DNA of 64,000 bases from an uncultured Candidatus Saccharibacteria bacterium (GCA_964359655.1 CAYHVI010000002.1:176-64175), one strand, 5' to 3'; positions 25,969 to 28,745 are shown, counted from the first letter of the stretch. A program made the numbers and translations. The notes: generated by a model not told the origin, from the sequence alone.

Positions 25969-26000
25969 TACGAATTACGAATCTGTACGAATATACGAAT
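25969..26000 (-). repeat. Array of 4 ATTCGTA heptamers ending 3 nt before the rplJ start codon
   Basis: Minus strand reads gtATTCGTAtATTCGTAcagATTCGTAATTCGTAgatATG. Confidence 0.8.
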
Positions 26001-26261
26001 ACAAAATAAAAAGCTGTGGTATTTCCACAGATCAACAAAACGAAAACACATTTTCGTTTCATCCTAAATAGGGTTTATGATCTCTATCAAGATCACCTAT
26101 TGTCTGTGGATGGAAGAAAGCTACGGGATAGTTTGGATTGATAGATATATCATAATCGACCCGACATGATATTTCTACCGTACACCCAAGTGTAGGGTGA
26201 CTATCCCATAGCAGGCTCGAGGGGGATGTGGCCCTCCTAAAAAGGGGAAACAACTATCTTA

Positions 26262-26290
26262 GTTATAGGCTAGGCAGGTTTTCTTGTCAA
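26262..26290 (-). promoter_or_regulatory. Sigma70-type promoter of rplJL, followed by a ~290-nt leader
   Basis: TTGACA, 17 nt, TATAAC on the minus strand. The long structured leader may be an L10-type autoregulatory leader, but this is not verified. Confidence 0.55.
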
Positions 26291-26293
26291 TAG

Positions 26294-27391
26294 CTATCGC
26301 AAGTAGCGTTCTTTTGCCGCTTTGTGTTCTTCAAAGTTCTTGGTAAAAATGGTAGTGCCGTCGGGCGCGGAAAGATAAAACCAGTATGGACTTTCTTTAG
26401 GTTCCAATGCCGCCCGAATACTTTCTAAACCAGGATTTGAGATTGGACCTAACGGTAAGCCATATACTCGGTAGGTATTATAGGGCGATTCAATCTGTGT
26501 TTCCTCAATAGAGACTTTATAATAGTTTCCCTCTCGAATATACACAACAGTAGCGTCTGCTTGCAGGCGCATATCGTCTTCCAAACGTTTCCACAGAATG
26601 CCCGAAACCACTTGTTTGTCTTGAAAACTTCGGACTTCTTTTTCGAGAAGAGCGGCAAAGTTGATTACTTCAAAAATTGTTTTTTCTTGAGCTTTGATTG
26701 CAGAGAGTATGTCTGCAGTAAGATTGGATTCAAAGTTTTTGAGCGCACGGCGCACAAAACTCTCGGGTGTTTCGCTTACGGTTACCTGATAGGTGTCGGG
26801 GAATAAGTATCCTTCAAGGCTTATGTAAAGAGGTTTGTCTTTCAAAAATGCAAATTCGCGGGAAAAATCTTTTGGTCCGGGAAGATTGCTCTCTTCTGTG
26901 TAATCTTGGGCAGGATATCCTGTAACAGCAAAGAATTCTTCTTGCGTAAAAAAACCGCGGTTCTCAAATTCTGTGGCAATATCGTTGAGATTCCATCCCT
27001 CCTTGATGGTGAGATATTCTTTTATAATATCGCCATGCACGAATGTAAGAATAATCGTATGAGCATTCATCGATGGGGAAAGCAGATAGTCGCCGCTCTG
27101 AAACCGGAAAGCTCGACCACTCAATGCAGCATAAAGAATAAAACTGTTGCTCGAGCGAATAAGCCCTGCGTCTTTGAGACTAGAGGTAATTTGCCAACTC
27201 CCCTGCCCCTTCTCTACGGAAAAAAGAATTGTACTTTGATCTTTGTAGTCAACCGGAACAAAAATGTGAATAAACAAAAAAATTGAAACAACCGCGCAGA
27301 ATGCGGCGGCGAGCTGACAAACAAGTTTTGCGTTAGACGAATGGAACAAAGACGAATCCAGGATATTCTTCTTCTTTGAAATTGTTTTCAT
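26294..27391 (-). CDS. mltG: Endolytic murein transglycosylase MltG (YceG family)
   Basis: N-terminal TM segment and YceG signature ...PYNTYRVYGLPLGPISNPGLESIRAALEP. The start could instead be 27436. Confidence 0.85.
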   Translation of the reverse strand: MKTISKKKNILDSSLFHSSNAKLVCQLAAAFCAVVSIFLFIHIFVPVDYKDQSTILFSVEKGQGSWQITSSLKDAGLIRSSNSFILYAALSGRAFRFQSGDYLLSPSMNAHTIILTFVHGDIIKEYLTIKEGWNLNDIATEFENRGFFTQEEFFAVTGYPAQDYTEESNLPGPKDFSREFAFLKDKPLYISLEGYLFPDTYQVTVSETPESFVRRALKNFESNLTADILSAIKAQEKTIFEVINFAALLEKEVRSFQDKQVVSGILWKRLEDDMRLQADATVVYIREGNYYKVSIEETQIESPYNTYRVYGLPLGPISNPGLESIRAALEPKESPYWFYLSAPDGTTIFTKNFEEHKAAKERYLR

Positions 27392-27950
27392 TTTCTTTGG
27401 TAAATACCCAAATGGAATTTTGAATGGGGACAACAATGGTGCCCCCGATTTTCAGTTGTTTTCCCCATGTTTCAGGAAGTTCTTTTCTGGCGAGGCTGGC
27501 AGAAACCAAAATGCCGTCATAAGGCGCTTCTTTTTCATATCCTTCAGCCCCGTTTTGGCAAAGAAACTTTACTATTCCCTTCTTTATAAAATTATACTTT
27601 GCAACATTCTGTTCGCCAAATTCCTTGAGTTCCGGGATGATTTCAAGTCCAATTACCCTGCCATGTTCGCCTACTATGGAAGCTAAAAGAGCGCTCGTCC
27701 ATCCTGAACCTGACCCAATGTCTAAGATTTTTTGTCCTGCTTTAAGCTGCAGCTTTTCTAACATAAAAGCAACAACGTATGGCTGCGAAATCGTTTGGCC
27801 CAACGCAATGGGTAAAGCTTCATTAATCTGCGCCCAGTCTTTCATGTCAGGAGACACAAAATCTTCCCGGTTGATCTTCATGAATGCTTCCTTTACATGT
27901 GGGGTTTGCAATACTCCTTCTTGAATTAGATATTCAACGAGTTCTTTCAT
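27333..27950 (-). CDS. pcm: Protein-L-isoaspartate O-methyltransferase
   Basis: ISQPYVVAFMLEKLQLKAGQKILDIGSGSGWTSALLA. Confidence 0.9.
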   Translation of the reverse strand: MKELVEYLIQEGVLQTPHVKEAFMKINREDFVSPDMKDWAQINEALPIALGQTISQPYVVAFMLEKLQLKAGQKILDIGSGSGWTSALLASIVGEHGRVIGLEIIPELKEFGEQNVAKYNFIKKGIVKFLCQNGAEGYEKEAPYDGILVSASLARKELPETWGKQLKIGGTIVVPIQNSIWVFTKENENNFKEEEYPGFVFVPFV

Positions 27951-28455
27951 TGAGGTGTTTGCGAAGCTTAAACTTTTCCAGCAGATTCAAGCGATCGATA
28001 ATAAGTTTTCCGTTTAAATGATCCAGTTCGTGCTGAAAAATTCGTGCGGTTAAACCCCCGGCTTTAATTTTTACTTCTTGCCCCCCTGGCGTTTGGCATA
28101 CGAGTTCTATGCTTTCTGATCTCTTAACCTTCACAAAAATCCCGGGAAGACTTAAGCATCCTTCTTCTTCTGTGATTGATTCCTCTGATTTTTTTGTAAT
28201 AATCGGATTGAGAAATGCAAGAGGCCTGCCTTTTTTTTCTTTGACGGTTTCCCGTGGATCAGTTGAAGTTTCCACAACAATAATCCTTTTTGATATTCCG
28301 ACTTGGGGAGCGGCCAGTCCAATGCCTTGGTTTTCGCACATTGTTTCGATCATCTGCGCGATGAGGTTTTTGATTTCAGAATTTCTAGGCGAAACTTCAT
28401 CTGCCTTGCGCTTGAGAATTTTTTCCGGGTAATTAACTATAGAGAGTGTAGGCAT
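27934..28455 (-). CDS. def: Peptide deformylase
   Basis: Motifs GIGLAAPQVG, EGCLSLPG and QHELDHLNG. Confidence 0.95.
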   Translation of the reverse strand: MPTLSIVNYPEKILKRKADEVSPRNSEIKNLIAQMIETMCENQGIGLAAPQVGISKRIIVVETSTDPRETVKEKKGRPLAFLNPIITKKSEESITEEEGCLSLPGIFVKVKRSESIELVCQTPGGQEVKIKAGGLTARIFQHELDHLNGKLIIDRLNLLEKFKLRKHLNERTR

Positions 28456-28463
28456 AAAAATTG

Positions 28464-28534
28464 CAGGGGCGGGAGGAATCGAACCCCCGATGAGGATTTT
28501 GGAGATCCTCGTGATACCACTTCACCACGCCCCT
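28464..28534 (-). tRNA. tRNA-Trp (anticodon CCA)
   Basis: AGGGGCG acceptor, anticodon arm AGGAT-CTCCAAA-ATCCT, T arm GGGGG-TTCGATT-CCTCC. Confidence 0.88.
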
Positions 28535-28551
28535 ATCGAGCTAAGCTCGAT

Positions 28552-28716
28552 CTATTTCCTCGTTTCTTTATGCGAAGTGCGCTTTCTGCAATTTTTGCAA
28601 AACTTCCGCAATTCCAATTTTATCTCGGTTGCTGCTTTTGATTTCCGGATAAAGTAATTAATCTTCTTGCAGACTCCGCACTGGAATTTGGTAAATGGTT
28701 TTTTCTTTGTTGGCAT
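28552..28716 (-). CDS. rpmG: Ribosomal protein L33
   Basis: MPTKKKPFTKFQCGVCKKINYFIRKSKAATEIKLELRKFCKNCRKRTSHKETRK (54 aa, zinc-ribbon L33). The longer track ORF runs through tRNA-Thr. Confidence 0.9.
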   Translation of the reverse strand: MPTKKKPFTKFQCGVCKKINYFIRKSKAATEIKLELRKFCKNCRKRTSHKETRK

Positions 28717-28721
28717 AGTCC

Positions 28722-28745
28722 TACGAATTACGAATTTATACGAAT
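28722..28745 (-). repeat. Array of 3 ATTCGTA heptamers ending 5 nt before the rpmG start codon
   Basis: Minus strand reads gtcgtATTCGTAtaaATTCGTAATTCGTAggactATG. Confidence 0.8.

Follow-up and report, generated by a model that had tools for sequence, protein, structure and literature searches.

Patescibacteria are uncultured bacteria with tiny genomes and few recognisable regulators, and their start of translation without a Shine-Dalgarno (SD) sequence is poorly understood. The DNA analysed here is a stretch of 64,000 nt from an uncultured Candidatus Saccharibacteria bacterium (GCA_964359655.1 CAYHVI010000002.1:176-64175; "the window" below means this whole stretch), in which arrays of the heptamer ATTCGTA stand in front of three ribosomal-protein genes, rplJ, rpmG and rpsP. 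The source of the window is a metagenome-assembled genome of Patescibacteria, sampled in Hainich groundwater. The products of these genes were confirmed by Pfam as L10, L33 and S16. All three genes lie on the minus strand, and motifs are spelled in the mRNA sense throughout.

ATTCGTA arrays in front of rplJ, rpmG and rpsP

The arrays are listed below; the ATTCGTAATTCGTAG end of the composite is called its head and the other end its tail.

25969-26000, minus strand: single sense array of rplJ, four perfect units in the spacing 7-1-7-3-7-7, head 3 nt from the ATG at 25963-25965
28722-28745, minus strand: single sense array of rpmG, three units (7-3-7-7), head 5 nt from the ATG at 28716
39912-39943, minus strand: sense arm of a doublet at rpsP, head 17 nt from the ATG at 39894
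39942-39973, plus strand: inverted arm of the doublet, ATTCGTA T ATTCGTA CTT ATTCGTT ATTCGTA, head 8 nt from the rnc stop codon (39982-39984)

The leaders read ATTCGTA T ATTCGTA CAG ATTCGTA ATTCGTA GAT ATG at rplJ, GGTCGT ATTCGTA TAA ATTCGTA ATTCGTA GGACT ATG at rpmG, and ATTCGTA A ATTCGCA AAA ATTCGTA ATTCGTA, followed by 17 nt and the ATG, at rpsP. Common to all arrays is the architecture ATTCGTA-N-ATTCGTA-NNN-ATTCGTAATTCGTA-G, with the spacing 7-1-7-3-7-7 and unit starts at 0, 8, 18 and 25. At rpmG, where a degenerate GGTCGTA (28745-28751) overlaps the array, the four-unit version was found in the same place in the genome of L117 (L-numbers denote loci from other genomes used for comparison). 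An earlier reading of this DNA made without database searches (the sequence-only reading) had placed four units 3 nt before the rplJ ATG, three units 5 nt before that of rpmG, and a third array before rpsP. All of its array coordinates were correct, and the rpsP array was borne out, with four units of which one is ATTCGCA. The fixed 7-1-7-3-7-7 architecture, the inverted array at 39942-39973 and the ribosomal-protein genes of the window that have no array, namely rplL, rplK (57169-57588) and rpmF (41190-41477), go beyond that reading.

Exact copies of ATTCGTA numbered 17 in the window, compared with 6.6 +/- 2.6 in shuffled versions, none of which (0 of 100) reached 17, and 13 of the 17 copies fall within the three clusters. 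When one mismatch was allowed, 179 copies were found in the window and 177 were expected. Since this is no excess, the signal lies in the arrays and not in the heptamer as such.

Two neighbouring features bear on the transcription of the arrays:

26001-26127, minus strand: attenuator of the L10-leader type, with a terminator hairpin at 26014-26030 and a U-tract, ending exactly where the rplJ array begins
28976-29004, minus strand: promoter-like site TTGAAA-17-TACAAT with a TG before it, upstream of tRNA-Tyr, 10 of 12 positions matching

Since the rplJ array directly follows the attenuator, it is transcribed as 5′ untranslated region (UTR). The attenuator scored 29.2 bits (E = 0.006) against the Rfam L10 leader RF00557, which is below the gathering score of 44, and it was predicted to fold at -35.1 kcal/mol (z = -4.0), with an alternative antiterminator fold. 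Promoter, binding-site helix and terminator are kept in four relatives (L120-L123), and 5 covarying pairs were counted in five genomes. When the window was scanned with Rfam, only tRNAs were returned at the gathering threshold, and by E-value only this neighbouring L10 leader. The L10 leader is a separate element and is not part of the repeat. It was also observed that these Patescibacteria have kept an L10 leader of the Firmicutes type, with a CCGCAGAC/GUCUGCGG antiterminator.

The rpmG array starts 17 nt after tRNA-Thr, and the site at 28976-29004 is the likely start of a transcript comprising tRNA-Tyr, tRNA-Thr, the array and rpmG. The earlier description of the arrays as 5′ UTR on the coding strand, at the usual position of an SD sequence, was upheld, with rplJ behind the L10-leader attenuator and rpmG behind tRNA-Thr. 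No promoter was found inside the arrays by a sigma-70 scan. At the loci L066, L071, L110 and L114 of other genomes, the array is preceded by an extended -10 promoter at a distance of 19-25 nt, and inverted arrays were found between a stop codon and an intrinsic terminator (L026, L066 and L111). The single arrays were predicted to be unstructured as RNA (z = -0.4 at rplJ and -0.1 at rpmG), and the rpsP doublet was predicted to form a hairpin of -28.4 kcal/mol (z = -4.9) in the rnc-rpsP transcript. The arrays are transcribed spacers and not promoters.

Distribution, polarity and neighbouring genes

A pattern of 19 specified bases (TTCGNANNNATTCGTAATTCGTA) was scanned in one-genome-per-species GTDB contigs and matched at least 119 loci, with 138 sites, in about 80 metagenome-assembled genomes (MAGs); about 4 matches were expected by chance. 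The loci were labelled as Patescibacteria/Candidate Phyla Radiation (CPR; 60 loci), as Bacteroidota (44), or as other, unplaced or probably mis-binned (15). The full consensus in CPR was ATTCGTA-Y-ATTCGTA-NNN-ATTCGTAATTCGTA-G(R)(R), a composite of 32-35 nt, and the Bacteroidota version carried one extra unit and a TCG spacer. The number of copies per genome reached at least 9. Units varied by genome (ATTTGTA in L004 and ATTAGTA in L042), with both arms affected, and the free spacer positions agreed at 1.94 of 4 within genomes compared with 1.37 between genomes, a result reached by 0 of 1000 permutations. The exact composite was absent from 2.9 million viral contigs, and 12-15-mers of it, in either orientation, gave nothing relevant in the searchable literature.

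These counts bear on the possibility that the arrays are ordinary simple-sequence repeats, produced by local replication slippage and without a shared origin. The number of units does vary, with three at rpmG here and four in L117, and other tandem 7-8-mers occur in the window. However, more than 100 loci in about 80 genomes have this uneven architecture in identical form (1, 3 and 0 nt between the units), and the 138 matches to the 19 specified bases far exceed the 4 or so expected. An origin by slippage is refuted by this architecture common across genomes, and we regard it as hardly credible.

The genomic context was analysed in a set of 149 arrays with at most 4 mismatches. In sense copies, 4-9 nt separate the head from the start codon of a same-strand gene that follows; in inverted copies, which make up about half of all, the head lies 2-8 nt downstream of the stop codons of unrelated genes. 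In CPR, the median distance to the nearest open reading frame (ORF) was 7 nt from the head and 61.5 nt from the tail. Conservation was equal in the sense and inverted classes. In front of inverted arrays, 78 Pfam families were counted among 53 genes. Two further arrangements were tried and rejected. One was a 5′/3′ panhandle, in which a sense and an inverted array would bracket one gene or operon (both were present in 2 of 50, with a base rate of 4.8%). The other was a hidden antisense ORF behind inverted arrays, where ORFs of at least 60 aa occurred in 8% of cases compared with 6% in controls.

Ribosomal-protein genes, which make up an estimated 5-7% of genes, stand behind 14 of about 41 sense CPR arrays, and behind 11 of 38 when this window is left aside, an enriched minority of about 30%. 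The ribosomal-protein genes with arrays were rpmJ (three times), rpmE (twice), rpmG, rplP, rpsC, rpsH, rpsF, rpmC and rplY. The shared ribosomal-protein operator considered in the sequence-only reading is partly supported, by the enrichment but not by specificity: about 79 Pfam families were found among the 46 genes behind sense arrays, and the array is not specific to ribosomal proteins.

SD-like motifs are rare in the host genomes: 13% of genes in CPR (9% at a control position), 7% in Bacteroidota and 16% in the window (12% at the control position) are preceded by one. Arrays stand before about 5% of genes. Therefore, the notion that the arrays fill the place of a missing SD sequence was not sustained, as so few window genes carry such a motif and relatives start rplJ and rpsP at the same ATG with neither SD sequence nor array. 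An SD substitute, recruiting the 30S subunit by base-pairing with rRNA and thereby the strict form of the enhancer element offered in the sequence-only reading, would fit the position of the arrays at -4 to -40 in SD-poor genomes. Complementarity to 16S rRNA, a check that had been suggested together with the arrays, did not exceed chance when E. coli 16S was used as a proxy: hexamer complements matched 4 times compared with 3.4 for shuffled arrays, and the best duplex with the 3′ tail reached -10.9 kcal/mol compared with -20.4 for a true SD sequence. Relatives also translate the same genes without an array, and base-pairing would leave the inverted class unexplained. We give almost no weight to a function as SD substitute.

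At many gene starts of the window (for example 5799, 22801, 23152, 42087, 42122 and 55606), the SD sequence was mostly absent and TANNNT was often found 6-9 nt before the ATG, frequently after TG. This suggests that leaderless or near-leaderless mRNAs may be widespread in the window.

The array could also be a portable promoter, with transcripts starting near unit 3 and a leader of about 20 nt. Where units 1 and 2 meet, they form TAYATTCG, which to our eye is similar to a -10 hexamer (TATATT/TACATT) and to the TAnnTTTG of the Bacteroidota -7 box; the TAnnTTCG match arises from the conserved 1-nt spacer. The length of 32-35 nt and the distance to the ATG fit promoter geometry, and many genes of the window look leaderless, with the TANNNT just described. 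By contrast, the arrays gave no promoter in the sigma-70 scan, they are preceded by good canonical promoters, and nothing is conserved upstream of the array in the CPR group. At rplJ, a promoter past the L10 attenuator would bypass autoregulation, half of all copies would drive antisense transcription of gene 3′ ends, and none of the 25 tRNA genes in the loci has an upstream array. A promoter function is considered highly improbable.

Array-free relatives and inverted doublets

The gene order def-pcm-yceG-leader-rplJ-rplL is kept in relatives, in which no array is present. The rplJ leaders of L120, L121, L122 and L123, with RplJ identities of 84, 72, 64 and 54%, respectively, are free of arrays, and in L120 and L121 the rplJ ATG directly follows the terminator U-tract. 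At rpsP, L128-L130 (RpsP identity 72-77%) have only 3-4 nt between the rnc TAA and the rpsP ATG. The rnc-rpsP spacer here is 87 nt long and reads TAAAT-CACCCC-(62-nt doublet)-GGATAT-TAAAT-AAAGCA-ATG, with TAAAT on both sides of the doublet. The genome represented by L117 and L123 has an array at rpmG and none at rplJ, and the rpmG site of L121 holds a different repeat of 125 nt instead. Since the arrays are absent at the orthologous sites of close relatives, they are recent insertions into transcribed spacers. The sequence-only reading had itself named absence from the leaders of relatives as grounds for refuting its interpretation, and the motif is indeed absent from the orthologous rplJ and rpsP leaders.

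In L121, the palindromic repeat of about 125 nt occurs twice (at about 845-1210 and 1290-1420), after tRNA-Tyr and after tRNA-Thr. Between the two tRNAs lies an unannotated ORF of about 80 aa, which looks to us like a small nuclease gene. The same spacers draw different repeat families in different genomes.

The window doublet is a palindrome of 33+33 nt with arms that are 82% complementary; it is identical in three independent assemblies and is therefore no assembly artefact. Among the CPR arrays, a tail-to-tail inverted partner was present within 80 nt of 14 of 35 sense copies and 17 of 38 inverted copies (about 40-45%), far above the frequency given by independent placement at about 5% of gene ends. 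The set contained 25 doublets, with inverted arms of 32-35 nt. Beside CPR arrays that appear single, inverted heptamer remnants were found on the tail side in 7 of 57 cases and on the head side in 0 of 57. Selection for hairpin pairing in the doublets was considered and rejected, as there was no sign of it beyond the arms being copies: 51 of 69 deviating positions break the pairing, the compensated cases are lineage-wide unit variants, and the doublet spacers were pairable at 43% compared with 37.5% for random sequence.

A second doublet was found in the same operon as the rpsP doublet:

41111-41189, minus strand: foldback doublet of TGTTSGAA-type octamers, occupying the whole spacer between rpmF and nusB and ending 7 nt from the nusB ATG

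Its 26-nt arms are 81% complementary, and it was predicted to fold at -19.6 kcal/mol (z = -2.1). Since rpmF and nusB overlap by 8 nt in three relatives, the octamer doublet is another recent foldback insertion, of a different family. A metagenome scan with the octamer pattern was uninformative: it returned at least 120 loci, of which many were simple arrays of the microsatellite type from unrelated organisms.

Additionally, several other repeats were observed in the window. In pheS (62958-63968, minus strand), a perfect tandem of 4.7 units of ATTCGAA, one mismatch from ATTCGTA, lies in frame at 63448-63480 and encodes ENSKFEIRNSKF, between the DMWNTFW and LLRTHTS motifs of the catalytic core. 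In trmD (29011-29691, minus strand), a tandem of 4.4 units of CAAACTA at 29442-29472, on the coding strand, encodes about KTTNYKLKT. A perfect palindrome of 20+20 nt lies at 30175-30214, and one of 24+24 nt, 88% complementary (CATTATAGCATATAGATATTGACA / TGTCAATGGCAATATGCTATAATG), at 46095-46142; the latter looks like two back-to-back promoters of the form TTGACA...TATAAT. From about 30000 to 39400, some 9 kb are poor in long ORFs, with four ORFs of 109-128 aa that have no Pfam match and a DAHP synthase gene (33470-34486) as the only recognisable gene. In the same stretch, a tRNA-Ile (30648-30724) was called by ARAGORN and not reported by Rfam. The segment 56585-58351 (minus strand) carries secE-nusG-rplK-dcd, with no rplA (L1) after rplK, and rplJ-rplL is located about 31 kb away, behind def-pcm-yceG.

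Interpretation and kinship with known repeats

The repeat, of the form tail-ATTCGTA-Y-ATTCGTA-NNN-ATTCGTAATTCGTA-GRR-head, is multi-copy, occurs in both orientations, forms doublets, has copies that are alike within a genome at the free spacer positions, is absent from the orthologous sites of relatives, and lies in transcribed spacers here. We read the arrays as a dispersed, insertion-polymorphic small foldback repeat of SD-poor Patescibacteria and Bacteroidota, similar to repetitive extragenic palindromes (REPs) and miniature inverted-repeat transposable elements (MITEs), and we attach an even chance to this reading, for which the octamer doublet of the same operon also speaks. The insertion unit would be the doublet, with its heads outermost, which would insert into, or persist only within, the small number of neutral positions where ORFs meet. 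Singles such as those at rplJ and rpmG would be halves that kept the ORF-proximal arm, and the constant orientation of the head towards the nearest ORF would follow from this. As the last 27-45 nt of the 5′ UTR, U/A-rich and without self-folding, a sense array would probably keep the start codon single-stranded and away from the attenuator terminator or the tRNA structure, and an open start codon would suit the SD-independent initiation already used by these genomes. Doublets would fold into intercistronic hairpins whose base would draw the upstream stop and the downstream start together. Initiation can proceed with a sense array in place, and the array may favour it by holding upstream structure at a distance from the start codon. 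Translation does not depend on the array, because relatives do without one. The strict conservation of its sequence most likely reflects recognition by a copying agent or a binding factor.

Several points weigh against a foldback repeat. No transposase or mobilising gene turned up in the 8-kb blocks around the arrays, in which no systematic search was made, and, given that there was no viral match, no vector for a spread across phyla is evident. About 55% of the copies are perfect-consensus singles with no trace of a partner; singles may have been inserted as such, and the head-to-ORF polarity would then be unexplained. Flank matches of at least 5 nt were present at 15 of 25 doublets, compared with 29% in a cross-locus null without composition control, and their positions were asymmetric; a target-site duplication is only suggestive. 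The effects on translation proposed above are predictions from sequence. Moreover, arrays recur at the same genes in lineages far apart, with three cases for rpmJ (one of them in a Bacteroidota genome) and two each for rpmE and rpmG, and ribosomal-protein genes are about five-fold enriched. Together, this recurrence and enrichment hint at selection for function over neutral spread.

Enrichment and the recurrence of rpmJ, rpmE and rpmG in distant lineages would also be explained if the array were the cis binding site of a sequence-specific trans factor, with copies that spread like mobile elements and are kept where useful. On RNA, the site would place translation-related and highly expressed genes under common post-transcriptional control, a regulon loosely comparable to the eukaryotic 5′ terminal oligopyrimidine (5′-TOP) system; on DNA, it would be a double-stranded operator like the heptads of omega repressor or CtsR. 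Two phyla share the fixed architecture of four units, in which the TT.G positions do not vary; this and the tight distance from head to start codon point in the same direction, and the unit variants of L004 and L042 are found in both arms, as if co-evolving with a reader. The equal conservation of the sense and inverted classes fits recognition of double-stranded DNA. However, the arrays are absent from the same genes in close relatives, the flanked genes are mostly unrelated housekeeping genes, and no candidate protein was identified. A reader of RNA would meet UACGAAU, and not AUUCGUA, in the inverted half located in 3′ UTRs, and a DNA operator would sit downstream of promoters, after the attenuator or tRNA, and not over -35/-10. 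We consider a trans factor possible but unlikely. In a more far-reaching form, which we judge distinctly unlikely, the composite would be recognised by a sequence-specific factor common to Patescibacteria and some Bacteroidota, which would mark ORF edges on mRNA or DNA and set the efficiency of initiation, and possibly of termination-reinitiation, for a mobile, rapidly rewired set of highly expressed genes. If true, bacteria would have their own version of motif-based translational regulons such as 5′-TOP, spread by a foldback element.

The repeat family is undescribed: it is kin to known kinds and a member of no named family. The closest described phenomenon is the TAACTGA heptamer, whose direct repeats, of unknown function, occur in marine Beggiatoaceae, Cyanobacteria and some Bacteroidetes, with 169 direct repeat sets and one indirect set in a Beggiatoa genome (MacGregor, 2015; PMC4679880). 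The TTTTGAA heptamer repeats near start codons of Nostoc PCC7120 (bioRxiv 10.1101/2022.06.06.494920) are similar. Like the TAACTGA repeats, the ATTCGTA arrays consist of 2-6 heptamer units a few nucleotides before start codons, lie in SD-free spacers of unrelated genes that include ribosomal-protein genes, and are distributed patchily across phyla, which suggests horizontal spread. In contrast to them, they use another heptamer in a fixed 7-1-7-3-7-7-G composite instead of plain tandem copies, they have an equally large inverted class right after stop codons, whereas TAACTGA repeats are almost all forward, and they often form tail-to-tail hairpin doublets. The insertion polymorphism with respect to close relatives shown here also sets them apart from the TAACTGA account. 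In some Bacteroidota MAGs (those of L058, at 1221-2408, L035 and L067), ATTCGTA-type units build spacers that look like satellite DNA and reach about 1.2 kb, in which several full arrays follow one another at 80-120 nt; these recall the very long TAACTGA arrays of some Bacteroidetes and Cyanobacteria.

REP, REPIN and BIME elements and bacterial MITEs, such as the Correia elements of Neisseria, are dispersed extragenic sequences of 30-150 nt that occur as singlets and inverted doublets and form hairpins in mRNA. They are found at operon junctions and in 3′ UTRs, differ from one close relative to the next, and show greater similarity among the copies of one genome. The ATTCGTA element resembles REP/REPIN sequences in being extragenic and multi-copy, with singlets and inverted doublets, but its arm consists of direct repeats without self-complementarity and is not palindromic (z = -0.4 and -0.1). 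As in MITEs, its doublets carry terminal inverted repeats (25 pairs, with arms of 32-35 nt), and the arrays show presence/absence polymorphism, with empty sites in relatives. Unlike both kinds, the element has no established target-site duplication and no known partner of the transposase or RAYT (REP-associated tyrosine transposase) type, the same sequence occurs in two phyla, and its head-to-ORF polarity is strict.

Heptad operators are known for repressors of the ribbon-helix-helix or winged-helix type, namely for omega of pSM19035 (WATCACW, direct or inverted) and for CtsR (heptad-3 nt-heptad); cooperative binding needs at least two units, and the operators overlap the promoters of a few operons in one replicon. 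The ATTCGTA arrays share with them contiguous or near-contiguous 7-bp units in both orientations. Unlike these operators, they sit at the edges of ORFs, past the promoter, with dozens of sites in each genome, and they have no known cognate protein. The L10 leader (RF00557) occupies the same rplJ 5′ UTR as the array; the leader is conserved and structured, whereas the array is unstructured and absent from relatives.

In annotation, the labels ribosomal-protein leader and ribosome-binding site should be avoided for these arrays. Even as nothing more than a selfish foldback repeat, the ATTCGTA element would show that insertions of 35-85 nt are tolerated at operon junctions of 0-4 nt, and it would be a marker of very recent genome change and of exchange between Patescibacteria and Bacteroidota. 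If it is bound by a factor, it would offer a handle on SD-independent gene expression in both phyla.

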